IMG/VR virus record: IMGVR_UViG_3300032311_001250
Span: 1-64,000 of that record
Length of the DNA stretch: 64,000 bases
Reading direction: 5' to 3' (one strand)
Source of the DNA: a virus
The position numbers were made by a program, and so were the translations under genes. Within the stretch, counting starts at the first letter, position 1. Each line of letters opens with the position of its first letter. The notes below the pieces were generated by a model that was not told the origin of the DNA, did no database searches, and worked only from the letters and a program-made list of their open reading frames with translations. Below, one piece after another: positions 10,956 through 54,278 of the stretch.

Positions 10956-13900
10956 GTGGCTGAGGGTCAGGGCGGGAATGTCGCAAGCGTAGGTCTATCT
11001 CTAGACTCGTCTGCGTTTAATTCTGGCGTAGCCCGCGCCCTTGCAGACATTTCCCGACTCCTCACCGGACTGCGCGAGCTTCAGGCTGCCAGCCAGAAAA
11101 CCAACCTCGGCCAACTCGGCGCTACTGGACGATCCGGAGCGGCTTCTGGCGCTTTTACCCCCGCAACATTTGCACGCGATATTCGTCGCCTTGCTATTCC
11201 GGCAATCCGTCAGCTTGATCGCGCCGCCTCCACGTCTCCGCTACTTACCGGAAGAATGGCTCGCGGTGCCGGGTTTGACCCTGCTGCCATGGCAGCGGCA
11301 ATCAATCGCCAGACAATTCCCGCAATCCAACGCCTCAACCGAACTATGGGGAGCTTCCGCGACTCCGACTTCATGAAGGAGTTTGAGGCTGGTCGAGCCG
11401 CCAGGGAGCGCGCTCACCGAGCAATGCTGGAGCGTGAGTCCAGGATTACGCAGGAAATTGCCAAGGGAACCACTAAGCGATTGGAGCGCGAGCAGGCGCG
11501 CATGATCCAGGCGCAGCAGGCTGAAAACCGCCGAGCGGCAGATCCAAACACCCAAGGCTCTCGACAGCTTCGTGCCGCAATTGAAATGCGCCGTCAACTT
11601 GCGGAGCAAAAGCGTTACGTTGAGGCGCACCCAACCCCAACGCAGACCCGCTATGCCGGAGGCGGAAGGGGCGGTGGCAGCCGTGAGGGTCGATGGGGTG
11701 ACGTTGCCGACCTGAAAGGCATTCCAAAGGACTGGCGCAAAGTCCTTATGCAGCTTGAGCAGCAGGGGTGGAGGATTGAGCCACGAAGTGGGGGCCATCC
11801 AGTTGCATACCCGACAAGCAAGCAATATAAGCCCATTACGTTCCCGAGCACGCCATCAGACCATCGTGACCTTCTAAACTTTATCTCGAAGGCACGACGA
11901 TCTGGCGGGGTTATCAATGGTCGTGGGTACCGAGATGAGGCCGGTCCATTTGTTGAGCGACAGCGTGGATTCTATGAAGACCCGTCAACCAAGAAACCGA
12001 CGCTTCGCGCCAACTATCGAATGGCTGCCCTTGAGGAACTTGTAACCTCTAACCTACCGAGCTATCCGCCGGTCATGCAACCGCGCCCTCGCGGCGTGTC
12101 TGGTGTCTCTGCGGCCGATCCTAACTCCCGGCAGCAAATTGAAAGAATGATCAAGGGCTTTGAGCGCGGCAAAGTGTTTGCCCCAAGCGCTAACCTTGAG
12201 GAAGGCCTCATTGCCACCGTGGCAAATGCTGCTGGACAGCAGTTCGTCGCATCCGGTAATGCCCGAACCATGGCGCTTCAAGCCATTGCAAAGCAAGGAA
12301 CTCCGCTTCGCAACGCCATTAGCGGCTTTAGCATGGAGTACCTAAAATCAAATCCAACAGAGTTTGGCCAGGGCGAGGTTGCCGCACTTAAAAAGGCTGG
12401 AGCATCTATTGCAAGGTCCGGCAAAACGCCAGTGCTCATCCGCGAGATTGCCGGTGGCGTAGAAGGCCTTGCTCCGCAGCGCCTTGGCCAGCTCGGTCTG
12501 CAACTCAATGCTCGAACCGGTCTTTCTGAGAGCGAGATCGCCATTGCTGCGTCGCGCATGCTTTCTAAGGTCCCGGCAGAGGTGCTTGCCGGAGATCCTC
12601 GTAAGATTGTCGCCGCAGGAAAGGGGCCAGCATATGAGGCCCTAAAGAGCGCCCTTTCTTCGGAAGTGCTCGGTGAGCATGTTATGGGGACAAGGTACAA
12701 GGGTGCCAGCGGTGGTGTTGCATTTAAGGGCATGATGGAGCAGATGCTGTATGCACGCGCGTACGGCAATAACCCGGCAACCGCCCAAATGCTCACCGCA
12801 GCGTTCTCCGGAGAGCCCTCAGAGATGAGTTCCTCTGTCAGGGCTGCACTTGGTCGTAGCCTTGGACCACAACTACGTCTCCGCGAACGAATCAATGCTG
12901 GAGAAGTTCCGGCAGGCATGGATCCAATCTTCAACTCGCTTCCTGGAGCATTGCAACTTATGCAAAGGGCACTCGGGACCGGCGGGCAGGGGCCAGGGTG
13001 GATTACCAACCCAGAAACACTTCGTGGAAACCCTGCCGGAGCGTTGCGTGCATTGCTTTCGCAGAAAACTATGTTTGGAGATCCGACTACAGCAATTGAG
13101 CGTCGTCTTGCCGCAAACATGCTTGCTGTCGGGCCTCAGGGTTTGTCTCCGTTCCTTTCCTCACTCGGCATGTACGGCTCCCGGGCAGAAGGTGCCCAGA
13201 TGGGCATGTTCGGCGCGTCTGAGGGTGGCCTGCTGCAAGCAACTAGCAACCCACGTCAGGCTATTGCACTGGCCCAGAAGGCAGCCGCACAATACCAAGA
13301 AGCACTAAAGACCGATCCGGCCCTGAAGGGCACCGGAAAGGCGGCCGTTACCGCCAGAGAGGCAGTGCTAACCTCCATTGTTGAGGGCGTCTATTCTGGC
13401 ATGCCTGCTCAAGCTGCGGCTGTGGCGCAGAAGGTGGCAACAAGCAGCCCACAGGCTGCTGCTGTCGGCCAAGAAATTGTGCAGGGGACCGCTGCGGCTG
13501 TCACTCAGGCTGCGGTAAATCCAAAGAGGAAGAAATTCACGTTTAAGCTTTCCGAGGAGGAGCAGGCTGCGTTCCTCAGTAAGCTTCGTGGACCAGTGGT
13601 TGCCCCCGCCTCACAGGGCGGCGGATATCAAATGTTCCCACCAGAAGAGCCAAGAACTGGGCTGCGCAGGCCAAATGCCCAGCGCATGACAGAGCTTGGT
13701 GGATACGGTATTTCTCCACGGGAAATCGGTGTTGCTGAGGGCAGCGTAAAGGCCCGTGCTGGTGGGTATCTGCCGTATAGCGAGTCTAGCCCACAGCGGC
13801 AAATGCAATACAACAATCGGCTTACACGCGGCTATGCAACGTTGATGGGTGAAATCGAGGGTCACCTCGCTCAACCAGGACCAAAGTCTACCGCCGCGCT

Positions 13901-16900
13901 TGCAGCAAAAATTCCAGAGGTTGAACGTCTATACAAGGTTGCTATGGAGCGTGGCGGCCTTGGCATGGACCCAATGAACGCCCATGCAGAAGTGGTTGCC
14001 AAGGCTCGAGCAATCCTTGGACCCGTAGCCATCCCGCAGTCAGAGCCCCAGCGGCCACCAATTGTTACCGCAACGCCGGTACCGACGACACCCGAAGGAA
14101 TTCCTTACATCAAGGTTCCAACTAGCGGAGAGTTGACTGAGGCCCAGATAAAAGCTGTCCAGGAGGGCCGAGCAAAGCTCTTAATGCCGCCTCCTCCACC
14201 TCGGCAAAAGACCGGAAGGAGCATTGGCGGTCCTATCCCGCCAACCAATGAGGGTTTGGCATCGCTCCTTGGCATTGGTCCGGCGCTGCAACTTGGTGCC
14301 GGATATCGTCCGTATCCTGGCGATCCAATGCTTGCCGCCCTTACGCGCGCTCAAGTAGAGCGACGCGCCCTCGCTCTGTCTCGTGGGCAGGTTGAGGGTC
14401 CCCTTATCGGGGCAAATCGTGGCGGCCTTGATCCGGTAACCGGTGCGTTTACTGTCAATCCGAAGATTCCAGAAGTCACCAGGATGCAAGGCGGAATGCT
14501 TCGTGCGCTTCTTACTAGCGAATCGCTGAGCGCAGCTGAAAAGGCACGACAGATCTCCCTTCTCAGCGGAAGCATTCCCGGCATGCGAGGGGTTCCAACG
14601 AGTATCCCAGAGGGCCAGTGGCAGAAGCTTGGGAGCGGGTCATATCGCGGACCAAAAGACCTCAAGCCAGTGTACGAGTCGCTCAAGCCGCTTATTGAGC
14701 AGTATGGTGCCGCTCGAACTATGGGCTACGTTGAACTTGCCAGGGGCTCTTCGCAAGGTTACGGGTATTGGGATCCAAAGAATAAAGGCCTGAATCTTTC
14801 TGGGCTTGAGGGACGAAGCTCTGGTGCAATCATGCGAACGTTGGTGCACGAGCTTGCGCATGGATCATTTGGCGAGGCAATGAGGACCGGCTACAAGCAG
14901 CCTGGTCAGGTTCAGATTTATGGCCCCAAGGGTGAAAGCATGGGCATGGCGCCGCATGGCGCTGCCTCTGCGCTTCTTGCCGGAGAGCCAACGAGAGTCG
15001 GCCACCTTGATCCAAAGTTCTACGAGATGCAGGCAAGGATTCTTAAGTCCGAGGGCGGGCTTTTCTCATCGTTGCTGTTCCATAACTTTGCGCAGGGTGG
15101 GTCGCTCCCAGGTGGGCTTGGGTTGCAGGGCACAGGCCCAGAATATGGTATTGGAAAGCTCGCCGCTCAACTGACTCCACAGCTAGAAAAACTTGCCTCG
15201 CCTCAGCAGCTTCTAGCCGCTCAGGCATTTACAAAGACTATGAACACCTTGGTAGGTGGTATTGAAGGATTTGCTAAGGGCAGGGGCAACCTCGAGCAGA
15301 CCAGCAACGGCATCGCAAAGGCGTTCAGAACGCTTGGAGAATCGTCCTCTGAATTCAAGCCAGAGTTTTTGCTCGGCGGTGCCGCCCGGCTATCCAACTT
15401 CATCCGGCAAAATGGCCAAGAAGGCCTGGCAAAGATGGCCCCAGAGCAGTTGCGTGCAGGAATCGTCAACTCCATCCTGTCTACCACGACCGGCGCACTC
15501 GGTCCGGGTCGGTTGCTGGGGCCAATGTCGCAGGTCAGTGGTGTTCATGGGCAGATCTCAGAGTTCCTCAAAAATGCCAGCGAAATGGAGAAGGGCTACC
15601 TGGCCATGGCGATCAACCCGCAGGCCTTTGTTAAGGAGCCCGGGGCAAAGCCATTCTACCAGCGTGGAGATGTAGATCATCTACAGAAGGCTCAGGAAAT
15701 CCTCTCAAACGTTGCGCAGGAGGCAGAACGCGCTGCAAGCGTCATCCCAGCAGCAACAAATGTTGCCGTTACGCGACGTGCCGGAATGCAGCTTCCTGTT
15801 ATCAATCGAGGACGCATGCTTCCGGCAGAACACTCGGTTGTTGTTTCCGGGCAGCGCTATGGGGCCGGTGGTGGTCAGTTTGTAGAAACAACTAATAGCG
15901 CCGGAGAGACTGTTCGGCAATTTGTTCCTGCTCAGCGCCTCCCAGAGGTAACCCCTGTACAGGGACCTATGTCTGGCTCCGGAGCCCTTGTCGTCTACGA
16001 CCCCCGCGTTGCTGCTCAATACGAGCAGAATAATCCACGCTTTGCCGGAAGGCCATATGGCGGTCGAGCAGAGACTCAACGCTTTACTCCGAATGCTGCT
16101 CTTCTCAACGAGGCATACATGCGCACGCTCAGCTACGGAGGACAGGGCTTCTTCGGTCGTGTAGGGTACGAGCGCCTGACAATGCCGGCACAAGAAATTG
16201 CAAGCCGGTACGCCGGATTCCGTGGCGCTGTTGGTCAGGCCGCATACAACAGCCCCCTCAGCCCAATTGGCGGCATGATGAGCCAGTTCCGACAGGCAAC
16301 AGGAACATATGCCGAGGCCGAAATGGGAAAGCAGCAGCTTCGCGCGGCGGCCCGCCAGCAATATCAAGGTCAAGTTGCCCAGGCTGATGCATTTGCCAAT
16401 GCCCAGACTCGATTGAATCGTGTTCTCGGTACTGGCACCGTAAACTTCCGAGAGCTTGGCAAGGTAATGAGCGAGGTCGGAAACGGCTTTACTTCTGGAG
16501 CTCTTTCTTCGCTGAGGTTCGCTGCAAACCTTGCCATTGGACAGCAGGCAGTGTTTGCGTTCGTCGGAATGATCAACCACCTCCGTGGCGGTATTATCGA
16601 GTTCAACGCAAAACTTGAGGCCGCTGCCGTAGGGTTTAACACACTCTTCCGAAACGCTGGATATACCGTCGAAGATGCGAGCGAGAAGACCAAGGCATTC
16701 ATTGGCGTTCTTCGTGACTTTGCCAACGTAACAAACTTCCGATTCGGCGACCTTGAGACCGCAGCCCTCCGCATGAAGGCATTCGGTTTCGAGGTGGATA
16801 ACGTTACCGCTGCCGCAAAGAACCAGATGCCAATCCTTGAGGAAATTCCTAATCCGTGGGCAAAACTGACCGGAGAGGCTAAGAGCTTCCGTGGCGCCCT

Positions 16901-19900
16901 CGTCAACATCGGCGATGCAGTTGCGGCACTCGGCGCAGAAGACGATAAACTCCGCCGTGTCACGTACGCCCTTGGCCAGATGAACTCAGCTGGTCGTGTC
17001 TATCAAAACGACATGATGCAGCTGGCAAACGCTGGTATTGCCGGATATGACATTCTTGCTAAGGCAGTTAAGAAGCAACTCGAGAATGACCCAGAGCTCA
17101 TGCGCGCAAATAAGGCCATCTATAACAAGTTGCTAAACCCAAGAACTGCCGTAGAGGAGATCCGCAAACTTGCCCGCGTTGGACGACTCGTTGGACCAGA
17201 GGCCGTGCAGGCCATTCTCCAGGGCCTTGGGCAGCAGTACGGCGGCGGCATGAAGGCGTTCTCCCGTACCTTCCAAGGAGCCATGACAACTCTTGCGGAT
17301 ACGTCGCAATCCCTTATTGCTACCGCGTTCAAGCCACTCTTCGATGTCACCCGAGATCTTGTCGTTCAGCTTGCCGACGCCTTCCAAACATCTGAGTGGA
17401 CGGGCAAGGCGGATAATGCCGCCAAGGTCATTCAGAAGGTTGCGGAAGCGCTCAGGTCAATGATCCCTGGAACGGCAGACACGATTATGAAGGTCCTTGG
17501 TAGCTTCTTTGAAACCTTTGCAAAACTTGGAAGCTCCCTTGGCAGTACCACAAATGGCTTGGGTAGCTTTGTTAATAACTTTGCTGCAGGAGTAAAGACC
17601 ATTGGAGATCTTCTTCAAAACAGCGTGATCCGCAACCTTTTGGTGGCCGGCGTTACCGCAAAACTCGTTATGGGAACAATTGCTTCCAACCCTCTCCTGG
17701 CAACCATTGGACTCATTGTGTCTTCCATTGGGGCAATCAGTAAGGCTATTGAGACAAACGCCTTTGGCTTTGGCGACCTTGCGGCAAAGGTGCAACCTGA
17801 ATTTGACAAGATCCTTGCAAATATCAGCGGAAACTTCATCCCGGGAGTAACGAGCGGCCTCTCCGACGGCCTGGGCGCGTTCTTTGCCATCATGGGGGCC
17901 TTCATCCGCGCAGTCACTCCGCTATTGGTCGCAATCCTGGACATCATTAGTAACGTTGGGTCTGCTATCAAGCCATTTGCCAGCGTTCTTGGCGTTGCGC
18001 TTGCGGCATTTGTTGGCAAGAAAGTCCTGATCGACGGCATGGCTGCCGCCATGGGTAAGTTTGCCGCCGCAACTGGCGCTGCCGTCGGCAGGGTCACATC
18101 GCTTAAGGAAAAGATGGCGCTGTATCAGGCGTTTGGAACCACCGGAAGGTACTACGGTGGCGACAAGCTAATGGCGATGCAAACTATGCAGCTGGCCAAT
18201 GGTCAAAGTCGAGCAGTTCTTGCCCCTGCCGAGCAGGGTGGAATTGGTATCGGCGGACCGACTGCCGTTCGCGCAGCCCTTGCCCTGGCGAATCAATTTG
18301 CCCTCCTGCAGACCGGAGCCCCACTCCAGACTGCCGGAGTCGTTCCGCCGCAAACGGTCCTTGACAAAAAGACCGGCCGCCAGGTCGCCAACCCAATGTA
18401 TCAACAGTTCCTTAATACCGCCGCATTTAATCCGCAGACAACTCTGGCCCAGTATCAAGCAATTCGCGGCGCACGAAAAGAAGAAATTATGCAGGAGTTG
18501 GCAATTCGAAGGAACAAGTCGCTGACCCCAGAACAGCGCCAGGCTGCTCTAGCAAATGTGTCAACTGCCGGACGCCAGGCATATCGACAATTCCGTGCAG
18601 ATACCGGAGGAGCTGGTTCTTCAAGCATGAAGGCCCTTGAGGCGTCATTTGCCTCAATGAGCCAGGGGATGATTGCCCAGCTCGGTCAGTTTATGGCCAA
18701 GATTCGATCCACTGGCCTCAGCTTGGAAACACTAAAGACTATTGCCAAGGCGGTTGGATCCCGACTTGCTGGCATGGCAACTGCTGCCATGGGCATGGGC
18801 ATGCTCTTTAGCGCTATCGGCGGAGCTTTGAATGTTAAGGAGCTTCAAGCAGTTGGAGATACGCTCACAACGATTGGGTTTGCAACAACAGGTTTGACCA
18901 TGATGTTTAACGCCTTGACTGTAGCTGTTGGCGCTGCCGCGCTGCCGCTTATGGCGCTTATGCTTGCAATTGGCGGCCTTATCGCGTTCATCAGTGCCAG
19001 CACAACTACCGAGCAGGATAAGAAAGGCGCAAAGCAAGTAAGCGAGATTATGGATCTCCGTGATCAGATGGTTGCAATGTACGGAGAGGAAGAGGCAAAG
19101 CGCAGGTTCCCGGACTACTTCCCAGAAAATCTTACGTTGCCGGAGAAAAAGTTGCGCATGGCCCTTCCCGGTGAAACCCCAGACTCTTATGATTGGATTA
19201 ACAATATCGCATTGAAACTTGATTATGACCCAAAGGATCTTGCCGCTGTCCGAAGTCAGTTCGGATTTACCGATGAGGATTTTGCAAAGACAAAAGCCTA
19301 TTTTGAGATGATGAATACCGATACCGGTCGAATTCTCTCCTTGTTCCAGGAAGGAAAAACGGCCGAGCAGATTGCTGAGATTACCGGTCTACCAATTGAT
19401 CGAATCAAGTTGCAGCTAAAGGAATTCTACGAGACAACTGGTTCTGACAATAAGGACTTTATTGCCAAGGTGCTTAGCGATAGCCTTGATGCAACCGGCG
19501 CTGCCCTGAAAGAAGCGCAGGAGGCTTACGAAAAGGCAATGGAGCCGTTCCAGAAGAACCTTAGCCGCCTGACTTCTCGAACCCAGGAAGTCATGCAGGC
19601 GCTCTTTGAGAGCGAGAAGAAGGCCCTGGAAGATGAGAAGAAGGCTGCGCTAGAAAATACGTTGGTAATGTACAACGGCGAGCAGGTCCGACTTGGCGTG
19701 CTGCAGCAGCAATATGATGCCATGAAGCTTCAGCGCGAAGAAATGGACCGCATGGCCGAACTTGAGAAACAGCGCACAGCTGCCGCAGAGGCCGCGCTCA
19801 ATATCTTTGACGCCAGTGTTGATCCGCTTGAGCGAGCTCGAGCGGCTCGAGAGTCCGCTCGAGATCTTTTCAATCAAGTTGGAACGTCAAGGCTTGACGA

Positions 19901-21560
19901 GATGCAGCGGGCGATTACCGCCGGCCAGGGGAATGTCGCCTATACAGAAACCGAGGCATTCTACAACGAGAAGATGGATGCCCTACAAAAGGATCAGGCC
20001 GAGCGAATGCGCACGGTCCAGGAGCAAATCGACGACTTGATGCAGAAGATCAAGGAAGGCAAGATTGGGACCGCCGCCGCACAGCAGCAGTTCAAGGATA
20101 TCTTTGCGCAAGCCGGTCTTGACCTCGACGTTGCCCAGACACAAGGGTACTCGTTTATGTCAGCCTTTGGCGATGGCTTCATGGATGCGATGAACACAAA
20201 TATTAAGGGCGTATTCTCCAAGCTGCCTGGACTTATCATGAAGGCGTTGGAAATGGTCAAGCAGGACAAGCTGTATCAGCAGGCCCTTGACGCCTATAAC
20301 GCCATCGTCACGATGGGTGACAAGATTACTGGCAAGGAATACAAGTCTAAGTATCTGCAGCCGCGCCTTGCTGGTTTGAACACTCTCTACAAAGATGCCG
20401 TTAAGTACCTTACCAGTGGCGAGGGCGTAAAGGCTGCCGGTGGCCTTGATAAGGCGCAAGCCATGATGGCCACACTGCTCAAGAAGAAGATCGAACTGGA
20501 AAACATGATCTCGGCAACTAGCGATACGGCTGTTATTGACAAGTCACTTGCATTGGCTGGAGACTCCTCATATCGCAGTGACATTATGGGTATCCAGTTG
20601 CCCGGCATGGGAAATCGCTCGCTTGTCGACTACCTCAGGCTTTACATGGGCTACGCTTCTCGTGACCGCGATAATTACATGAACAATCCGTATCTTGCCG
20701 GTGGCGCGGCTGGCGGTACAATCACGACTGCCGGTCAGTTCATGGTGGGCGAGCGCGGGCCGGAGATGATTGAAGTTGGGCCAAACGGCATTCGCGTCGT
20801 CCCAAACCACAAGCTTCCGTCCTGGCTGCGCTCGTCTGCCGGGGCTCTTGGCGCTGTCAATATGGGTCTGGGTGGCTATGCCTTTGGCACTGGTTCGGGC
20901 GACTCCGGAATGCGTGGACTGAAGTTTGACCCTAAACACATTAACCCGGAACACATTAGAAAATATGGCAACGTGTCAATGGCCGGAACCTGGCAGTCTG
21001 CCCTTGGCATGCTATTGATGCGTGCCGGGGCACCTATTGCCGCCCTTGCGTCAAGGGCCGGTAACGGACTTACTCGTGGAATGGAGTGGATGATTGGACC
21101 AGGACCACTTGGCAAGATGGCCGATAAGATTGTATCACTTGGCAGTAGCATCAATAATATTGATCCAGAAAATCTTGGACCAAAAATGAAGTTAATTAGC
21201 ACGCTCATGAAACCGCAAATGGACATGATGGCATTTGCGCAAGACGTTGGGTATACCAAGTATATGTCTACTGATTTCTTGAAAACTATGGCAGCTGCTG
21301 GTGGCACAATCGGCCTCACCGGGTTAGAAGCACAAGGCTTGATGGGTGCCCCTGGGTTCCTCATGAATCTTCTCAATGGTGGCCCACGATCAGTAACGCC
21401 ACCAAACGTGCATGCACACCCATCTCGATCACCAATTAGTGGTACAGTGAACATTCACAACCCGCAACTCAACTCTGCGGCCGACATTGACCGACTCGCC
21501 GAGCGCGTTGCGGAGGCTCAAGTGCGAGCACTTCGAAACTCCGGCTATGTAAAGAGGTAA
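10956..21560 (+). CDS. Giant tape measure protein with HicA-like, ddrB-ParB-like and zincin domains
   Basis: Follows G/GT. N-terminal LSLDSSAFNSG. Tape-measure domain about 16590-17350 (FANVTNFRFGDL...IGDAVAALG...ALGQM...QLANAGI). Hydrophobic helices. C-terminal AGG...VGERGPE...VVPN. Extra domains at about 11710-11925, 12010-12560 and 14660-15050. Confidence 0.92.
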   Translation: MAEGQGGNVASVGLSLDSSAFNSGVARALADISRLLTGLRELQAASQKTNLGQLGATGRSGAASGAFTPATFARDIRRLAIPAIRQLDRAASTSPLLTGRMARGAGFDPAAMAAAINRQTIPAIQRLNRTMGSFRDSDFMKEFEAGRAARERAHRAMLERESRITQEIAKGTTKRLEREQARMIQAQQAENRRAADPNTQGSRQLRAAIEMRRQLAEQKRYVEAHPTPTQTRYAGGGRGGGSREGRWGDVADLKGIPKDWRKVLMQLEQQGWRIEPRSGGHPVAYPTSKQYKPITFPSTPSDHRDLLNFISKARRSGGVINGRGYRDEAGPFVERQRGFYEDPSTKKPTLRANYRMAALEELVTSNLPSYPPVMQPRPRGVSGVSAADPNSRQQIERMIKGFERGKVFAPSANLEEGLIATVANAAGQQFVASGNARTMALQAIAKQGTPLRNAISGFSMEYLKSNPTEFGQGEVAALKKAGASIARSGKTPVLIREIAGGVEGLAPQRLGQLGLQLNARTGLSESEIAIAASRMLSKVPAEVLAGDPRKIVAAGKGPAYEALKSALSSEVLGEHVMGTRYKGASGGVAFKGMMEQMLYARAYGNNPATAQMLTAAFSGEPSEMSSSVRAALGRSLGPQLRLRERINAGEVPAGMDPIFNSLPGALQLMQRALGTGGQGPGWITNPETLRGNPAGALRALLSQKTMFGDPTTAIERRLAANMLAVGPQGLSPFLSSLGMYGSRAEGAQMGMFGASEGGLLQATSNPRQAIALAQKAAAQYQEALKTDPALKGTGKAAVTAREAVLTSIVEGVYSGMPAQAAAVAQKVATSSPQAAAVGQEIVQGTAAAVTQAAVNPKRKKFTFKLSEEEQAAFLSKLRGPVVAPASQGGGYQMFPPEEPRTGLRRPNAQRMTELGGYGISPREIGVAEGSVKARAGGYLPYSESSPQRQMQYNNRLTRGYATLMGEIEGHLAQPGPKSTAALAAKIPEVERLYKVAMERGGLGMDPMNAHAEVVAKARAILGPVAIPQSEPQRPPIVTATPVPTTPEGIPYIKVPTSGELTEAQIKAVQEGRAKLLMPPPPPRQKTGRSIGGPIPPTNEGLASLLGIGPALQLGAGYRPYPGDPMLAALTRAQVERRALALSRGQVEGPLIGANRGGLDPVTGAFTVNPKIPEVTRMQGGMLRALLTSESLSAAEKARQISLLSGSIPGMRGVPTSIPEGQWQKLGSGSYRGPKDLKPVYESLKPLIEQYGAARTMGYVELARGSSQGYGYWDPKNKGLNLSGLEGRSSGAIMRTLVHELAHGSFGEAMRTGYKQPGQVQIYGPKGESMGMAPHGAASALLAGEPTRVGHLDPKFYEMQARILKSEGGLFSSLLFHNFAQGGSLPGGLGLQGTGPEYGIGKLAAQLTPQLEKLASPQQLLAAQAFTKTMNTLVGGIEGFAKGRGNLEQTSNGIAKAFRTLGESSSEFKPEFLLGGAARLSNFIRQNGQEGLAKMAPEQLRAGIVNSILSTTTGALGPGRLLGPMSQVSGVHGQISEFLKNASEMEKGYLAMAINPQAFVKEPGAKPFYQRGDVDHLQKAQEILSNVAQEAERAASVIPAATNVAVTRRAGMQLPVINRGRMLPAEHSVVVSGQRYGAGGGQFVETTNSAGETVRQFVPAQRLPEVTPVQGPMSGSGALVVYDPRVAAQYEQNNPRFAGRPYGGRAETQRFTPNAALLNEAYMRTLSYGGQGFFGRVGYERLTMPAQEIASRYAGFRGAVGQAAYNSPLSPIGGMMSQFRQATGTYAEAEMGKQQLRAAARQQYQGQVAQADAFANAQTRLNRVLGTGTVNFRELGKVMSEVGNGFTSGALSSLRFAANLAIGQQAVFAFVGMINHLRGGIIEFNAKLEAAAVGFNTLFRNAGYTVEDASEKTKAFIGVLRDFANVTNFRFGDLETAALRMKAFGFEVDNVTAAAKNQMPILEEIPNPWAKLTGEAKSFRGALVNIGDAVAALGAEDDKLRRVTYALGQMNSAGRVYQNDMMQLANAGIAGYDILAKAVKKQLENDPELMRANKAIYNKLLNPRTAVEEIRKLARVGRLVGPEAVQAILQGLGQQYGGGMKAFSRTFQGAMTTLADTSQSLIATAFKPLFDVTRDLVVQLADAFQTSEWTGKADNAAKVIQKVAEALRSMIPGTADTIMKVLGSFFETFAKLGSSLGSTTNGLGSFVNNFAAGVKTIGDLLQNSVIRNLLVAGVTAKLVMGTIASNPLLATIGLIVSSIGAISKAIETNAFGFGDLAAKVQPEFDKILANISGNFIPGVTSGLSDGLGAFFAIMGAFIRAVTPLLVAILDIISNVGSAIKPFASVLGVALAAFVGKKVLIDGMAAAMGKFAAATGAAVGRVTSLKEKMALYQAFGTTGRYYGGDKLMAMQTMQLANGQSRAVLAPAEQGGIGIGGPTAVRAALALANQFALLQTGAPLQTAGVVPPQTVLDKKTGRQVANPMYQQFLNTAAFNPQTTLAQYQAIRGARKEEIMQELAIRRNKSLTPEQRQAALANVSTAGRQAYRQFRADTGGAGSSSMKALEASFASMSQGMIAQLGQFMAKIRSTGLSLETLKTIAKAVGSRLAGMATAAMGMGMLFSAIGGALNVKELQAVGDTLTTIGFATTGLTMMFNALTVAVGAAALPLMALMLAIGGLIAFISASTTTEQDKKGAKQVSEIMDLRDQMVAMYGEEEAKRRFPDYFPENLTLPEKKLRMALPGETPDSYDWINNIALKLDYDPKDLAAVRSQFGFTDEDFAKTKAYFEMMNTDTGRILSLFQEGKTAEQIAEITGLPIDRIKLQLKEFYETTGSDNKDFIAKVLSDSLDATGAALKEAQEAYEKAMEPFQKNLSRLTSRTQEVMQALFESEKKALEDEKKAALENTLVMYNGEQVRLGVLQQQYDAMKLQREEMDRMAELEKQRTAAAEAALNIFDASVDPLERARAARESARDLFNQVGTSRLDEMQRAITAGQGNVAYTETEAFYNEKMDALQKDQAERMRTVQEQIDDLMQKIKEGKIGTAAAQQQFKDIFAQAGLDLDVAQTQGYSFMSAFGDGFMDAMNTNIKGVFSKLPGLIMKALEMVKQDKLYQQALDAYNAIVTMGDKITGKEYKSKYLQPRLAGLNTLYKDAVKYLTSGEGVKAAGGLDKAQAMMATLLKKKIELENMISATSDTAVIDKSLALAGDSSYRSDIMGIQLPGMGNRSLVDYLRLYMGYASRDRDNYMNNPYLAGGAAGGTITTAGQFMVGERGPEMIEVGPNGIRVVPNHKLPSWLRSSAGALGAVNMGLGGYAFGTGSGDSGMRGLKFDPKHINPEHIRKYGNVSMAGTWQSALGMLLMRAGAPIAALASRAGNGLTRGMEWMIGPGPLGKMADKIVSLGSSINNIDPENLGPKMKLISTLMKPQMDMMAFAQDVGYTKYMSTDFLKTMAAAGGTIGLTGLEAQGLMGAPGFLMNLLNGGPRSVTPPNVHAHPSRSPISGTVNIHNPQLNSAADIDRLAERVAEAQVRALRNSGYVKR

Positions 21561-21563
21561 CTA

Positions 21564-24500
21564 ATGGCCAGCTATACTGGAACAATCACTGTCAAGATTC
21601 AACCAAAGCTGCTCGACTATACCTCGCTGTCCGATTTCGTTGATATCACTAACCGCGTGATCTTTTCCGAGGGAGGAGATTCGTCGTTTACGTTCACGCA
21701 GAGCTCTGAGGGGTCACAGGCAGGTGCTTCGTTCTCCCTGTTCACCATGTTCCCCATCTCAACAACGAAGTGGTCATCGTATACCGGAGCAACAGACTTG
21801 ATCAAGGCGCAAGCTGCGCTTAATGACCCTACCTTTGACTTCGAAGTGCCGGCTAGGTCTGAGGTGCAAATCTACGAGAACGGCAGCCTGATCTTCGGCG
21901 GCATCGTGACCGAAGTGTCTCGGGAGCGAACGGGTGGATCCATCACCACGCGCATTACCTGCCAAGACTATACTGCGCTCCTTGACGAGGTGGTAATTGA
22001 CCGGTACAAGGCCCCCTACGACGTAAAGGACTACCAGATCATCAAGGGCGGCTACGCCACCGACCCCGAAAAGAACGGCCTGTCGGTCATCAAGCTCGTT
22101 GATGGTGGCTCCGGCAGCACCCGAGAAATCACCGTTTCCCTGGAAGATGCGCACGACATGATTGTTGGGCAGCAGTTCACCATTGACCGATCTAGCTCAT
22201 ACAACGGGACATGGACTGTTTCTTCAATTCTTTCTGAGGTGTCAATTAAGGCAACAAAGTCTGGAACCGCTCCATATACCGCAGGCGATGAGACATCCGC
22301 CCGGCTAACGCCATATACGGCATCGATTTTTTCAGACATCCGAACGACCGATGCCTACAGCGGCCTATCGTTTAGCCTTGGAATCAATGCAACTAGTAGC
22401 TATGTCGAAGAGAATCTTAACGATACGCGCTTTAGCCCCATTTCGTATTTGCCGGACTCATCGTACCCAGATAAACTCGGGGCAAAGTTGTATCTGCCAT
22501 TTTCCGATTACAAAGTTAGCAACTATCGATTCTCTGCCGACCCCAAGGCGGCTGATCTTACCAATGAGCTGCGTCTCTTTGGTTTGCAAAGCACTATTAA
22601 TGAGCGAAACCTTGTCACCTCTATCAGTTCCTATAACACGACGAGCAATTATGTTGACGTCACAACTCTTGGTTCACACAACATTATCAGCGGCGAATAC
22701 GTCAGCGTTGTCAACCCGCTTCTTGATTCTGGAAAGACTTCTTTTTCATCGAGCTTCCAGGCAGATCGACAAAGTTCATCGGTGGTTCGCATGGCATCAC
22801 CTACTGATCCGGCGATTGACGTAAAGAAATACGCAATCACTGCGGCAAGTGGGGACGGAACATATATTACCTATACCTGCACAAATACATTTCTTCCTGG
22901 AGATGTGGTGGGAATCAGCGGGATTACGGAAACTAGCACCGCCGGATACGGCTCGCTTAACATTGTTTCCACCGTAGTGGAAGAAGCCACATCAACAACG
23001 TTCAAGATTAAAAACCCAGGAAATCAGACTGCCACCAGCTTTACAGGGGCCTATGCCTACACGACCTATATCCAACTGGCCAAGGATCGAGTGCAAAACC
23101 TTTATTCCGACTCTAAGGTGTATCAAATCCTTGCGGCAAACCGAGAAGGAAACGTTTCGCAAATTTGGTACAATTCAACCACACCGCAGTATGCAGTAAA
23201 TGAGTGCGTATTCATTGAGGGGCTTCCTGATTTTGACGCTCGCGTTATTGTTTCTGAGACGTCCGGTACCACCCCCGATGCTTTCACCGGAAGTCCATGG
23301 AGGATTTACAAATACGGTAGGTATAACAACGTCGGAGTAGTCGGCGTCGCTAAGAACAAAAGCCCCTATGTTCCTGGATACAAGAATGGAAATTACCTTT
23401 CCTCCGGGCACCCGTTTATTGTTGGGGCATCAATCGTTATCTCCGGACTAACCGGATCAGCTGCAACTGTCAACGGAACATTTACTATTACGAGGGTAAA
23501 AGGAAATTTGGTGTTCTTTAACAGTTCTGGAGGCAACACGGGGTCTTCCACAACCTATGTTAAAGATGTTTCCAGCAAGTCAGCCAGGCTTGCCAGCTCT
23601 ATCGTTTACAGCACCGGTGGTGTTTCTTGGATTAAATTTACCGATAGCCGGGCTGACGCAGAAAAAACACCAGAATCTATGCCTAAAACAGCGGCAATCC
23701 GTCAGTTTAATTTTGCCTGGCCAGCGATCTCTGGTGGTCGCTCGGCCGGAACCCCTAGCGCTTCCTTTATCACGGCCCCAGAAGATACGCTTTCGTACAT
23801 TGGCGGCAGGCAAGCTGTAAAGTTCACCTCATCGTCATACAGCGGCATTTCTTCAAGGATTAAGTCAGAAATTTCTTTTGTGGAAATTGCATCTAATGTG
23901 GTCACTATTACCACAAAAGCTGCTCATCGCTTCAGGGTTGGTCAGTTTGTTGTAGTGCAGGCGGCGACAAAAACTACCGTTCAGGGCGGCTATATCATTA
24001 CCGATGTCCCAACCCCAACAACGTTTACATATAGCCTTACTACTTCAAACTATTCAAAAACGGCGGATAGTGGTCCAACGTTTGTCATGGATACCGGTTT
24101 TGCCGCTCTATCAAAATCGTTCAGCGCAATCATTATGGTGCAGCCTAGCTCATTCCCGTCTTCTGGTAACTACAAGACCATTTGGCATCATGGCTCAATT
24201 GCGACGAGTCAGCGACGAGAGCTTATGATTGACTCTACCGGCCAGATTGTGTTTAGTACCGTTCATGGAACTTACTACAATACCGGCCTTACGCTTACCG
24301 CCGACGTTCCGGCATTGATCTACGTGTCCCTTGATTCCTCAACCGGAACCACTAACTTGGTCATTTCCAAGAATGACGAAACCGTGTACACGGCAAGTGC
24401 AACAAACTATGGAGGAACAACAAACGTAGATGGTGAGCCAAGGGCAAATCTCACTGTTGGCTACGGCTGGACAGATTCCAGCGCTGCCACCAGGTTCTAT

Positions 24501-26684
24501 GACGGCTTGATCGGCGACATGATTGTCATTGACCGTGTTCTTACCTCAACAGAACGTTCTCAGCTAATTTCTTGGATGGCGCATACCTTTACCCTTGCTG
24601 GATCGCTTTTGTCTAGCACCTCTACGTATAAACTTCTTGCCGACAATCCCGGGAAGGCCGAGGTTTCTAAGGTCAAAGAGCCATTTAACGGCATGACGCT
24701 ACGCCAGGCAATGGACTATATCTCGAAGAAAACTGGATGCCAGTATTGGGTTGACGCCAATAAGTACCTGCACTATATCAAGCGAGAGGTCCAAAACTTG
24801 GTAGAGAACCCAACTTTTGAAGATCAATTCGGCAATGCAAGCCTGACCGACTGGGATTTTGACGCAGGGTTCACTGTCTCCTCGAGGACAGAGGGGCCAT
24901 ACGGCTATGGATATGCCGCAACGGCCTCTGGAACCGCAGAGCTAATTGCTCGCTCAAAGTTTTTTACTGTTACCTCAGGAGAGAAGTATTTCGCTTCGGC
25001 AATGATGAAGACAAGCAATAAGTCGAAGTCCCGACTGGAAGTTCGCTTCTATAACTCTAGCGATGTGCAGGTAGGGGGAGAAAAGGAGATTGGGTCGGCA
25101 GTATCCACTAACAATTCTTGGGAAAAGATGTGGGGCATGGTTGCCGTTCCGGGAACTCCTGGCATCGTAAAAGCTGCGTTGATTTACCATCATACTTCGC
25201 ACAGCAGCACCTATACGGACTACTACGCTAATCCGCTTGTCGTGAAGCTTACCGGAGACTTTGGGTTTGCTGACTACGGCACCGCACCAGGTTCAACGGT
25301 AGAGATGCTGTTTGATACATCCCTAAACGCAATTATGCCACTCAAGACGTTTGAGGCGCCATCCAACATCTCTCAACACGGCAGCATGGCAAACCGTGTC
25401 TACATTTATGCTAAGCCGCTTGCAACGAATGCTACGGGTGATCTGATCTCGGCAAATGTCGTTACCGGACAAGTGCTGAAGTACACGTTTGACTATGTCC
25501 AGGGCGTCTGGAATACACATGGAAAAATCATTGAATCTTCAACCGTCAACAAGGATATTGAGACCGCTGAGGATGCGGCGTTGGCCGCAAGCGCAATCTT
25601 TAGCGATTCCGGCAAGACTATTGAATCTTACGACTTTGACCATCCAAACTCTGCCTCCGATGGACGACTGACTGTTGGAACCGTTATTCCATACTTCTGG
25701 AGCGAAGTCGGCGTTATTGAGCCGCTTGTAGTCAAGTCACAAACAACTAAATTCATTGGCGGAGAGGCCTACTACTCCGTGCAACTTGCCGGAGAGCCGG
25801 CACTGCAACGAAACGCAATTGTGCTTGTGCAGCGAGAAAACCTTACGGTCAATCTTGGCCCTGGCCAGCTTGCTTTGACTCGACCAACTAAGGTCAAAAA
25901 TATTGTTGTCAACTCTATTGATGTTGACGGAAAATCTCAGACAGTTGACTTGAACGCCAAGATTCAATGGAGCTTTGATACGACTGATCCAAGGAACAAG
26001 TTAGTAAAAAGGTTTGAAATTGAGCGACGTTCACAGGATTTGAACAAAAACATTCTTGGTAAAAAGGCACTTGCAAGTGGCACTGCTCTTTCTCGCGGGT
26101 CGGCTGTTGTTGGCGCAGAGTCTAGCTGCTATGTAAAGCTTGTTGGCTCTAACTCTATTAGCGCAGAGGACATCATCACTATTGCCAACTGGGTAAACCC
26201 AGCAAAAAAGAATTTGGCCGCCAATCCTACGCTTAACGGGAGCTGGGTTGTTGATCATGTGTCTTATAGCAAGACAAGTAAGGCAACAACCGTATACTTC
26301 AATATGTATGCATCGGAAACCTCGCCAATCGCAGCCTACAGCGCAGCAAAGGGTTCTGTCCCAACCAAATTTACTGTCAGCTGGTATGAGACTGTCAAGG
26401 CTGGTGTAACCGGGAACAAGTGGGCAGCGCTAGATACCGTTCTAATTGGGTCAACAAGCTACACGGATAGCAAGAGCGACTATAAGCACCGCTACCAGTA
26501 TAGAATCCGTGCTGTTGCAGAAACTGAAGATGGTGGTAAACTGTATGGCGATTGGTCATACGTTCCGGCAACGGCCATCAGCAGCCTGGCAGATACAGCA
26601 TGGCTGTATATCAATCGCAGCCTTGACCTTTCCTCTGATGGCGGAGCTGGGGCAGATGCGGTATTAACGGAGGCCACCACATGA
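21564..26684 (+). CDS. Large tail tip/hub protein with repeated beta modules, LamG-like and CBM-like domains
   Basis: IFGGIVTEV...ITCQDYT and GCQYWVDANKYLHY hub motifs; FYDGLIGDMIVIDRVLT (LamG-like); NLVENPTFE (CBM-like); C-terminal YQYRIRAV...YGDWS (FN3). Confidence 0.8.
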   Translation: MASYTGTITVKIQPKLLDYTSLSDFVDITNRVIFSEGGDSSFTFTQSSEGSQAGASFSLFTMFPISTTKWSSYTGATDLIKAQAALNDPTFDFEVPARSEVQIYENGSLIFGGIVTEVSRERTGGSITTRITCQDYTALLDEVVIDRYKAPYDVKDYQIIKGGYATDPEKNGLSVIKLVDGGSGSTREITVSLEDAHDMIVGQQFTIDRSSSYNGTWTVSSILSEVSIKATKSGTAPYTAGDETSARLTPYTASIFSDIRTTDAYSGLSFSLGINATSSYVEENLNDTRFSPISYLPDSSYPDKLGAKLYLPFSDYKVSNYRFSADPKAADLTNELRLFGLQSTINERNLVTSISSYNTTSNYVDVTTLGSHNIISGEYVSVVNPLLDSGKTSFSSSFQADRQSSSVVRMASPTDPAIDVKKYAITAASGDGTYITYTCTNTFLPGDVVGISGITETSTAGYGSLNIVSTVVEEATSTTFKIKNPGNQTATSFTGAYAYTTYIQLAKDRVQNLYSDSKVYQILAANREGNVSQIWYNSTTPQYAVNECVFIEGLPDFDARVIVSETSGTTPDAFTGSPWRIYKYGRYNNVGVVGVAKNKSPYVPGYKNGNYLSSGHPFIVGASIVISGLTGSAATVNGTFTITRVKGNLVFFNSSGGNTGSSTTYVKDVSSKSARLASSIVYSTGGVSWIKFTDSRADAEKTPESMPKTAAIRQFNFAWPAISGGRSAGTPSASFITAPEDTLSYIGGRQAVKFTSSSYSGISSRIKSEISFVEIASNVVTITTKAAHRFRVGQFVVVQAATKTTVQGGYIITDVPTPTTFTYSLTTSNYSKTADSGPTFVMDTGFAALSKSFSAIIMVQPSSFPSSGNYKTIWHHGSIATSQRRELMIDSTGQIVFSTVHGTYYNTGLTLTADVPALIYVSLDSSTGTTNLVISKNDETVYTASATNYGGTTNVDGEPRANLTVGYGWTDSSAATRFYDGLIGDMIVIDRVLTSTERSQLISWMAHTFTLAGSLLSSTSTYKLLADNPGKAEVSKVKEPFNGMTLRQAMDYISKKTGCQYWVDANKYLHYIKREVQNLVENPTFEDQFGNASLTDWDFDAGFTVSSRTEGPYGYGYAATASGTAELIARSKFFTVTSGEKYFASAMMKTSNKSKSRLEVRFYNSSDVQVGGEKEIGSAVSTNNSWEKMWGMVAVPGTPGIVKAALIYHHTSHSSTYTDYYANPLVVKLTGDFGFADYGTAPGSTVEMLFDTSLNAIMPLKTFEAPSNISQHGSMANRVYIYAKPLATNATGDLISANVVTGQVLKYTFDYVQGVWNTHGKIIESSTVNKDIETAEDAALAASAIFSDSGKTIESYDFDHPNSASDGRLTVGTVIPYFWSEVGVIEPLVVKSQTTKFIGGEAYYSVQLAGEPALQRNAIVLVQRENLTVNLGPGQLALTRPTKVKNIVVNSIDVDGKSQTVDLNAKIQWSFDTTDPRNKLVKRFEIERRSQDLNKNILGKKALASGTALSRGSAVVGAESSCYVKLVGSNSISAEDIITIANWVNPAKKNLAANPTLNGSWVVDHVSYSKTSKATTVYFNMYASETSPIAAYSAAKGSVPTKFTVSWYETVKAGVTGNKWAALDTVLIGSTSYTDSKSDYKHRYQYRIRAVAETEDGGKLYGDWSYVPATAISSLADTAWLYINRSLDLSSDGGAGADAVLTEATT

Positions 26685-53710: not shown

Positions 53711-53819
53711 TTAACTACCTCCTCGCCAGCATTGCCGGCGCTTGTTTCCAAGACGAGTATACGCTATCCTCACTAGTGAGGCCATTGCCTACCACGAGCA
53801 TATCATATCAGGGGGAACC

Positions 53820-54278
53820 ATGCCAGAAATCAGCACAGAAAATATCGACGATCTGATCCTTCACCCGGATAATCCTCGTGAGGGGGATATTGGTGCGATT
53901 GTTACAAGCATCAAGAAGAACGGGTGGTTTGGCACGGTCGTAGCTCAGAAATCAACCGGCTATATTCTTGCAGGGAACCATCGCGTGCAGGCCGCTCGAA
54001 TCTGCGGCATCAAAGAGGTCCCGGTATTCTGGGTGGACTGCGACGATGAGCGTGCAAAGGCAATCCTTCTTGCGGATAACAAGACAGCGGAGCTGGCAAG
54101 CTGGAACGATGATACCTTGCTTGCGCTACTTCAGGAGGCAGATGCCGGGAACTACCTTCTCGACACAGCATTCGATCAGGACGATATTCAGAAGCTTCTA
54201 GCCAAGCTTAATAGCGCAGATGGCGACGACGGGGACGTGTGCCCAACATGCGGCTCGAAGCGAAAGAAGGGCCGATGA
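53820..54278 (+). CDS. ParB/Srx-like domain protein
   Basis: LILHPDNPR...SIKKNGW...ILAGNHRVQAA...LADNKTAELASW. Confidence 0.88.
   Translation: MPEISTENIDDLILHPDNPREGDIGAIVTSIKKNGWFGTVVAQKSTGYILAGNHRVQAARICGIKEVPVFWVDCDDERAKAILLADNKTAELASWNDDTLLALLQEADAGNYLLDTAFDQDDIQKLLAKLNSADGDDGDVCPTCGSKRKKGR

Follow-up and report, generated by a model that had tools for sequence, protein, structure and literature searches.

Nucleotides 12000-12770 (plus strand) of the window, a 64,000-nucleotide stretch of viral DNA (positions 1 to 64,000 of IMG/VR record IMGVR_UViG_3300032311_001250), encode a genuine, divergent member of the DdrB-type ParB/sulfiredoxin (ParB/Srx) superfamily. The module forms a discrete unit, flanked by Gly/Pro-rich linkers, within the N-terminal third of a tape measure protein (TMP) of 3534 aa. 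The ddrB-ParB family is known; what is new is an architectural variant in which it is placed in a TMP. The explanation that best accounts for the observations jointly, to which we assign a probability of roughly 0.6, is that this divergent DdrB-type ParB domain is a cargo ejected through the tail that would bind its ligand without efficient turnover.

The TMP gene occupies 10956..21560 (+), a single uninterrupted frame of 3534 codons with a GTG start in a phage record of ~78 kb, and the N-terminus of its product matches the Met starts of relatives in alignment. Pfam TMP_3 matches aa 1973-2122, the tape-measure core (nt 16872..17321, +), with 42.3 bits where the cut-off is 41 bits, and the match to phrog_1686 ("tail length tape measure protein") has E 1.6e-17; both bear out the earlier description of the carrier, made from the sequence alone, as a TMP. 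The surroundings are those of a tail locus: two small ORFs lie upstream, one of them with a tail PHROG match, and large tail-protein ORFs lie downstream. Hydrophobic segments are present at aa 2237-2359 and 2647-2685. The ddrB-type ParB module is thus located inside the structural gene block, in a virion and late-gene context.

The core of the domain spans aa 349-536 (nt 12000..12563, +), as seen by hhalign, Pfam, the AF2 model and fold searches. A C-terminal extension homologous to P1 DdrB in hhalign continues to aa 605 (nt 12564..12770, +) and carries an ARAYGN motif at its end. The range in which the earlier note had placed a ddrB-like ParB domain, 12010-12560, nearly equals the profile-profile span of the core; it is not codon-phased, and translation from its first base gives a different frame, with stops. 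The strings quoted for the domain (YRMAALEELVTSN, SYPPVMQPRPR, SRQQIERM, VASGNARTMAL, PVLIREI and LNARTGLSESEIA) all occur in the TMP frame, in that order, at about aa 353-531.

Searching with the Pfam ddrB-ParB profile, as had been suggested, gave an answer that depends on the level at which it is asked. The gathering cut-off of PF18763 is 27.6 bits, and the window TMP remains below it, with 13.6 bits for the whole protein (aa 351-449) and 19.5 bits for the excised piece. Across all six frames of the 78-kb record the profile matched once, at the module (18.1 bits, E 1.3e-4 per genome). At the level of the small TMP clade, however, PF18763 is matched by all 13 of 13 members and no other family is matched consistently; the best score, 40.9 bits, is above the cut-off and belongs to P0007, a 3824-aa TMP relative that matches the window region with E 1.6e-25. 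Profile-profile comparison by hhalign aligned the clade profile with canonical ddrB-ParB at a probability of 98.8% (E 7e-17) and with P1 DdrB at 95.5% (E 1.4e-8, over DdrB aa 63-172); in a further comparison (A6 against the DdrB family), TMP aa 367-605 aligned with DdrB aa 63-267 (probability 94.8, E 4.9e-8). All 30 of 30 feature matches in the ESM Atlas were ddrB-ParB clusters, with values of up to 0.92. Membership therefore rests on clade-level and profile-profile evidence, the window TMP by itself scoring below the Pfam threshold. The motif pattern had been ascribed to "DarB-like and polyvalent" proteins, which holds in part: some methylase-bearing polyvalent proteins do carry the domain, but P1 DarB has no ddrB-ParB domain (hhalign probability 0.2%), the prototype being P1 DdrB.

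A phmmer search against 1.84 billion representatives returned only six proteins, all giant TMP-like proteins or their fragments, and the alignment-based scan of viral contigs found 12 loci. No loci came from the single-protein scan of viral contigs or from the clade-alignment scan of genome contigs, tblastn found no match among GenBank phages, and a word-indexed search for shorter relatives of the P0007 domain found none. One relative, P0005, is 91% identical. Complete ORFs from independent metagenomes (3231-3613 aa) carry the ParB domain near the N-terminus and an invariant HExxH motif downstream. Source databases call the clade proteins just "hypothetical" or "tape measure domain-containing".

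The AF2 model of the module (pLDDT 86.1, pTM 0.83) has the structure expected of ddrB-ParB, with predicted strands at model residues 10-16, 77-81, 87-91 and 150-156 and helices at 47-58 and 93-103. Because the alignment behind this pLDDT of 86 included canonical ddrB-ParB sequences, the sequence homology and the fold match are not independent lines of evidence; from a 7-sequence alignment, pLDDT reached just 45. In a PDB fold search (VIA-align) the best 8 of 48,161 representative chains were ParB/Srx, and among the re-aligned PDB chains the best 31 were all ParB/Srx (Z 3.5-7.9), the first unrelated chain having Z 2.6. For this model the absolute Z values are middling: pNOB8 ParB-N (5k5d_B) aligns with Z 7.9 over 119 residues at 3.2 A, and Caulobacter crescentus ParB (6t1f_B) with Z 6.8 and an rmsd of 2.4 A over 89 residues at 22% identity. 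The best matches in BFVD are named DdrB-like domain proteins (E 9.6e-7 to 8e-4). Sequence searches of the PDB, whether with the piece alone, a profile of the whole TMP or one of the clade, returned no ParB/Srx chain, only designed repeats and chance matches.

These results bear on whether the likeness could have arisen by chance, or whether the module could be a classical partition-type ParB, a CTP clamp with an HTH. Such a reading could call upon the sub-cut-off Pfam score of the window and on Foldseek, which found nothing in the PDB at E <= 1e-3, although its list is nonetheless mostly ParB/Srx. It is contradicted by the strong clade-level and profile-profile statistics, and we rejected it on the PF18763 matches across the clade, the profile-profile E of 7e-17 and the PDB and BFVD fold searches, leaving it a negligible probability. 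The features of partition ParBs were sought at the module and not found: PF02195 (ParB_N) has no match there at E <= 1 and matches a separate gene at 53871-54080, the motif reads GNAR and not GERR, and no HTH family was detected in aa 320-600. The earlier note had named the lack of any significant ParB/Srx profile or structural match as the outcome that would speak against its proposal; matches of both kinds were found, and the proposed ddrB-like ParB domain is supported by the clade matches, the profile-profile comparison and the fold searches.

The module has kept one set of family residues and lost another. In the QPRPR motif (aa 375-379, nt 12078..12092, +), the Q, the P and both R are family-invariant, and the canonical D of the fourth position is P. 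In the SGNAR motif (aa 433-437, nt 12252..12266, +), at a helix N-terminus, S, G, N and R are conserved, and the Glu that precedes them in 99% of canonical members (VESGN) is Ala. Twelve columns are invariant in 100 aligned family members, the window included. Canonical members show at least 96% conservation in the columns of eight residues, S433, G434, N435, R437, Q375, P376, R377 and R379, which do not vary within the TMP clade; six of these eight are invariant in 100/100 rows. Both the pocket Arg (SGN[GA]R) and the QPRxR loop of the ddrB-ParB family are therefore present in the window TMP; among canonical members, GNAR occurs in 37/80 and GNGR in 39/80. By contrast, the clade is missing residues that are near-invariant in canonical ddrB-ParB, namely five acidic ones, a Tyr and three Arg. 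Besides the VESGN Glu, these include the YPxE Glu (94% in canonical members), two Asp (92% and 99%) and the Tyr (98%). The Asp conserved at 92% precedes the VESGN strand and is replaced by a gap or Ala. Published features of ddrB-ParB include a lineage-specific Asp/Asn where strand 2 ends and a conserved Tyr in a family-specific helix (PMC5512222). The Tyr position is S459 in the window and V or Q elsewhere in the clade; three positions further on there is an aromatic residue, Y462 in the window and Phe in most of the clade.

In C. crescentus ParB, CTP binding needs R60, R103 and R104, while Q58, E102 and E135 are required only for hydrolysis (PMC8367383). From motif order we infer that QPR and GNxR are equivalent to the ParB motifs, and where the lost acids would have stood with respect to the pocket. 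As the Arg, Gln and Asn residues are kept and the acids lost, and as in the ParB CTPase Arg serves binding and acids hydrolysis, the module would most likely bind a nucleotide or the phosphate backbone of a nucleic acid, with inefficient turnover. The clade-wide loss of near-invariant acids likewise favors binding over canonical catalysis. The module might instead retain the full activity of a canonical DdrB-type enzyme, as an NTP-regulated nicking DNase or an NTPase that, upon entry, attacks the DNA of the host or of a competitor or degrades a nucleotide. It has the same fold and the same invariant Arg, Gln and Asn residues, and some acidic positions vary among canonical members too, with QPR[QNA]R in 7/80. 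Such an activity was proposed for the ParB family of polyvalent proteins by Iyer et al. (PMC5512222). We nevertheless consider this unlikely, as the entire TMP clade is without the VESGN and YPxE Glu, the two Asp and the Tyr, and even P1 DdrB is not known to have a demonstrated activity. In the family tree, moreover, the 11 TMP-type rows all fall on one side of a long branch (SH-aLRT 99), which suggests changed constraint in this clade.

The ParB domain is not the only additional module in this TMP. Directly upstream of it, after a Gly-rich linker, lies a small HicA-like domain (aa 255-327, nt 11718..11936, +) that matches phrog_2089 with E 1.9e-10 and Pfam HicA_toxin with only E 0.053. The same HicA-like and ParB pair is found in the fragment P0009, and a motif search detects the HicA-like domain in about half of the relatives. 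Further downstream, HELAH (aa 1298-1302, nt 14847..14861, +) stands in an invariant T..HE..H block and is followed ~50 aa later by a DP.F...Q block. This HExxH motif does not vary among 11 sequences with identities of 26-36%, and is found 770-900 aa past the ParB start in every relative long enough to show it. The region is a candidate zincin peptidase. Pfam gave nothing for it beyond weak WLM and DUF6782 matches, and no family could be assigned; its alignment with DdrB was limited to the ten-residue HExxH stretch, at a probability of 0.9%. Capture of a whole DdrB, from ParB through zincin, was considered and ruled against, since only DdrB aa 63-267 align and the HExxH regions share the motif alone.

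This arrangement also bears on a possible structural or assembly role in the virion, in which the module would grip the leading DNA end, mediate TMP oligomerisation or contact chaperones. In lambda and T5, the N-terminal end of the TMP is head-proximal, and by this analogy a module near the TMP N-terminus would sit beside the DNA end. The loss of acids suits pure binding, and nucleotide binding makes ParB N-domains self-dimerise (PMC8367383). Yet the neighboring modules, HicA-like on one side and HExxH on the other, together with the Gly/Pro linkers resemble a cargo array and not a ruler, and the canonical relatives of the domain are found in polyvalent effector proteins, so that a structural role seems to us quite improbable.

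We therefore favor tail-ejected cargo. A divergent DdrB-type domain residing in a TMP makes it probable that a module binding nucleotides or DNA is delivered to the host through the tail. The earlier note had likewise supposed that a nucleotide-binding or DNA-protecting activity arrives with the genome. The TMP would exit the tail and enter the cell envelope before the DNA, and the module, being ejected ahead of the DNA, would reach the host at ejection. It would be the tail-route counterpart of the head-packed P1 DdrB, which is ejected together with the anti-restriction proteins of the Dar system. Cleavage by the conserved HExxH region ~860 aa downstream could plausibly release the cargo. Once bound to its ligand, the module would protect or accompany the DNA as it enters, or else sequester a nucleotide.

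A more specific scenario, which we put forward only tentatively and hold to be rather doubtful, is that in a clade of environmental siphophages a Dar-like module moved from the capsid to the TMP and was stripped of its acids, becoming a non-catalytic, zincin-released pilot that protects the genome. From the DNA-proximal end of the TMP, this pilot domain would bind the end of the DNA as it enters, or else a nucleotide signal, and so guard the genome against restriction or exonuclease attack. If true, it would provide a tail-borne route for cytoplasm-directed anti-defense cargo.

We know of no activity demonstrated for any DdrB-type ParB domain. The change of context in the TMP clade, which keeps Arg, Gln and Asn and drops acids, offers a natural separation-of-function set for binding versus hydrolysis. 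The domain is a hub of the polyvalent-protein network, an arsenal injected with phage DNA (PMC5512222), and the TMP clade provides a different delivery vehicle for it. This suggests that TMPs may carry cytoplasm-directed cargo.

Among the closest known counterparts is P1 DdrB, the prototype of PF18763. This component of the P1 Dar system is present in the virion and is co-ejected with DNA (PMC12810830). DdrB has an N-terminal ParB domain and a C-terminal zincin (PMC5512222), and the zincins of DdrB and other polyvalent proteins were proposed to cut cargo free. The TMP and DdrB share their motif order (Y/F..L..S, YPxxxQPRxR, SGN[GA]R, EFG, PVLxR, N....E.A and an AxAYG[ND] tail), the spacing of an HExxH motif ~750-870 aa downstream of the ParB motif, and the status of virion-associated late proteins. 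They differ in that DdrB is a 995-aa internal head protein whereas the module described here is inserted in a TMP, in that the TMP clade is without several canonical acids and the conserved Tyr, and in that their HExxH regions are alike in motif only. Polyvalent proteins (Iyer et al., 2017; PMC5512222) likewise combine unrelated effector-type domains, linkers and a zincin-like motif in one virion-delivered polypeptide. The canonical examples that we examined, however, pair ddrB-ParB with LPD37, LPD38 or a methylase and have no tape-measure domain, and TMPs are unmentioned in that study. Nor does the TMP HExxH region demonstrably belong to the MPTase family of polyvalent proteins.

With the solved ParB/Srx proteins (pNOB8 ParB-N, KorB, Noc, ParB, PadC, sulfiredoxin, SerK, SbnI and Atu1540), the module shares the core fold (Z 4.5-7.9), a loop of the QPR type and, at the N-terminus of a helix, a G-x-x-R motif. 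It differs from them in having no HTH or dimerisation domain, GNAR in place of GERR and no sequence-level match in the PDB. Finally, TMPs with enzymatic inserts also serve as vehicles that bring an additional globular domain along during infection. The annotation of P1 Sit describes a tail ruler with an SLT domain, and T5 Pb2 and the motifs of mycobacteriophage TMPs are further examples. To our knowledge, the known inserts all target peptidoglycan, whereas the module described here comes from a nucleotide- and DNA-directed superfamily.

The tape measure protein (TMP) of this virus contains a member of the ParB/Srx superfamily at nt 12000-12563 (+ strand; aa 349-536), in which the QPRxR and SGNxR motifs are retained. 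The host gene (10956-21560, +) is one frame that begins with GTG and stays open for 3534 codons. Its N-terminal residues line up with the N-termini of relatives, which begin with Met, so this start is right. Its product is a TMP on several lines of evidence: Pfam TMP_3 matches aa 1973-2122 at 42.3 bits (cut-off 41), phrog_1686 ('tail length tape measure protein') matches with E = 1.6e-17, there are hydrophobic segments at aa 2237-2359 and 2647-2685, and the neighbouring genes fit. Prohead protease, major capsid protein and head-completion genes lie upstream, then two small ORFs, one matching a tail PHROG; large tail-protein ORFs follow downstream. The source IMG/VR record is 78,442 bp long with an estimated completeness of 90%. 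The 1706-aa ORF directly after the TMP gene (21564-26684, +) has no PHROG match at E ≤ 1e-3. Near the start of the window, a 701-aa ORF (819-2924, +) combines Peptidase_S78, the prohead serine protease family (E = 4.1e-7), with TUDOR-like (E = 6.9e-5) and ferritin-like (PF00210, E = 8.7e-13) domains, an unusual cargo for a protease or scaffold protein.

The peptide strings from which the earlier note had read a ddrB-like ParB domain all lie in one TMP frame, in the order given, at about aa 353-531. Its interval, 12010-12560, is accurate in position but not in codon phase, as translation from 12010 yields another frame. Searches with PF18763 (Pfam ddrB-ParB; cut-off 27.6 bits) bear out its assignment for the group rather than for the single copy. 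The whole TMP scores 13.6 bits (E = 0.075), an excised 243-aa piece 19.5 bits (E = 0.0011), and, when the full phage record is scanned in six frames, the TMP site is the single match, at 18.1 bits. All these scores fall below the cut-off, so that the window copy taken alone suggests a ddrB-ParB domain but is not sufficient to establish one. Relatives are few: phmmer, run exhaustively on 1.84 billion cluster representatives, returned six, all giant TMP-like proteins or their fragments, and scans gave 12 IMG/VR and 6 metagenome loci. A 3824-aa relative, P0007, is 34% identical to the window region (E = 1.6e-25) and passes the PF18763 cut-off at 40.9 bits. The family is matched by 13 of 13 aligned clade members (best E = 9.1e-12), and no second family recurs. 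Evidence from sequence is thus much stronger for the clade than for the single copy. In profile alignments, the clade profile matched phage P1 DdrB (aa 63-172) with 95.5% probability (E = 1.4e-8) and, over TMP aa 349-536, a canonical-domain profile built from prophages and IMG/VR contigs scoring 95-143 bits on PF18763 (98.8%, E = 7e-17). Longer alignments extend the DdrB homology to TMP aa 605 (nt 12770) through a common AxAYG[ND] motif, so the DdrB-like unit spans about 255 aa, twice the Pfam model length. An ESM Atlas feature search returned ddrB-ParB clusters for 30 of 30 matches (scores up to 0.92). Two antisense ORFs of 80 and 280 aa over the ParB region (12054-13120, -) are without support and are probably shadow ORFs, since all homology is carried by the + frame. 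A separate second ParB-type gene, a 178-aa ORF at 53742-54278 (+) whose position is unrelated to the TMP domain, matches PF02195 ParB_N at 53871-54080 (24.5 bits, E = 1.5e-6; slightly below the cut-off of 26.3).

The ParB/Srx fold proposed earlier was recovered in structural comparisons, with middling Z values. A model from a 7-sequence alignment was unusable (pLDDT 45), while one from a 100-sequence alignment (the window with 10 members of its clade, plus 89 other ddrB-ParB domains) reached pLDDT 86.1 and pTM 0.83, with four strands, the expected helices and SGNAR at a helix N-terminus. Foldseek found nothing in the PDB at E ≤ 1e-3; its list, all above that value, is headed by pNOB8 ParB-N, Noc, sulfiredoxin, SbnI, PadC, ParB and KorB. 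VIA-align against 48,161 representative chains placed ParB/Srx proteins at ranks 1-8: 5k5d_B (Z 7.9; 119 residues, 3.2 Å), PadC (6.3), plant Srx (5.7), KorB (5.6), SerK (5.0), Atu1540 (4.9), human Srx (4.7) and SbnI (4.5). When the Foldseek list was re-aligned, 31 ParB/Srx rows came in succession before a fall to Z 2.6, and C. crescentus ParB gave Z 6.8 (2.4 Å rmsd over 89 residues, 22% identity). The best BFVD matches are UniProt 'DdrB-like domain-containing proteins' (E = 9.6e-7 to 8e-4, probability 1.0), with ParB-like nucleases and GmrS-type domains next. The fold results back up the sequence homology without being independent of it, because the model alignment included family members.

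Twelve columns do not vary across the 100-sequence alignment, and at every one of them the window carries the family residue (S365, P371, Q375, R377, R379, G417, G434, N435, R437, N518, E527 and A529). A column-by-column comparison revealed that none of the 11 TMP-type sequences has certain residues that are near-invariant among the other 89: the Glu of YPxE (94% of the 89; V, I, A or Y in the TMP clade), the Asp of QPRD (79%; P, A or N), the Asp before the third strand (92%; gap or A), the Glu of VESGN (99%; A, L or I), a further Asp (99%; A, V or I), the Tyr of the family-specific helix (98%; S, V or Q) and three further Arg (89-98%; S/D, I/L and variable). A quick maximum-likelihood tree places the 11 on one side of a long branch (SH-aLRT 99). 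Canonical members readable in full are polyvalent proteins that carry an LPD37, LPD38 or methylase domain but no tape-measure domain. On the canonical side, the earliest branch and the one closest to the TMP clade is a metagenomic 2725-aa ORF (JACCDR011211403.1:876-9050, +) with ddrB-ParB mid-protein (aa 1390-1519, 103 bits) and no other Pfam domain.

In C. crescentus ParB, CTP binding needs R60, R103 and R104, whereas Q58, E102 and E135 are needed only for hydrolysis (PMC8367383). As the TMP clade has kept Arg, Gln and Asn and lost the acids, the module is, by this analogy, more likely to bind nucleotide or nucleic-acid backbone than to hydrolyse it. That it is an active canonical NTPase or DNase, for all its retained family motifs, seems unlikely to us given these losses, and we would rate a structural role within the virion, for instance in DNA-end binding or assembly, slightly lower still.

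Both the ddrB-ParB family and the part it plays in polyvalent proteins are already known. The searchable literature documents neither a ddrB-ParB insertion in a TMP, nor a separate long-branch clade of TMP-borne copies, nor clade-wide loss of the canonical acidic residues; Iyer et al. (PMC5512222) nowhere mention tape measure proteins, and none of the papers containing both terms describes the TMP-borne architecture. Source databases name the clade's proteins 'hypothetical' or 'tape measure domain-containing'. UniProt already names the best BFVD match (33% identical) DdrB-like, which puts close relatives within reach of automatic annotation.

In every relative with an ORF of 3200-3800 aa, the start of the ParB unit falls within aa 136-321; four of these ORFs are complete (3231-3613 aa, from independent samples). 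In the window, Gly/Pro-rich stretches flank the unit (aa 224-259 and 671-698). Directly upstream, after the Gly-rich linker, lies a HicA-like small domain (11718-11936, +; aa 255-327) that matches phrog_2089 (E = 1.9e-10) and, weakly, Pfam HicA_toxin (E = 0.053); by motif search, roughly half of the relatives have it, and the HicA-like and ParB pair recurs in P0009, a 322-aa fragment. All relatives long enough to show it have an HExxH motif 770-900 aa downstream of the ParB start. The surrounding region, a candidate zincin peptidase (14367-15176, +; HELAH at 14847-14861), matched no Pfam family, and its T..HE..H and DP.F...Q blocks are invariant in 11 sequences only 26-36% identical.

The protein that hosts the ParB domain leaves the virion at infection, and the TMP would thereby deliver the ParB module, which the HExxH region may then release. 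The prototype of the domain, P1 DdrB, is a virion protein of the Dar anti-restriction system; it is co-ejected with DNA and counters type I restriction (PMC12810830). Its ParB domain is N-terminal and its zincin, thought to process DdrB, C-terminal (PMC5512222); the likeness of the HExxH region to that zincin is limited to the motif itself.
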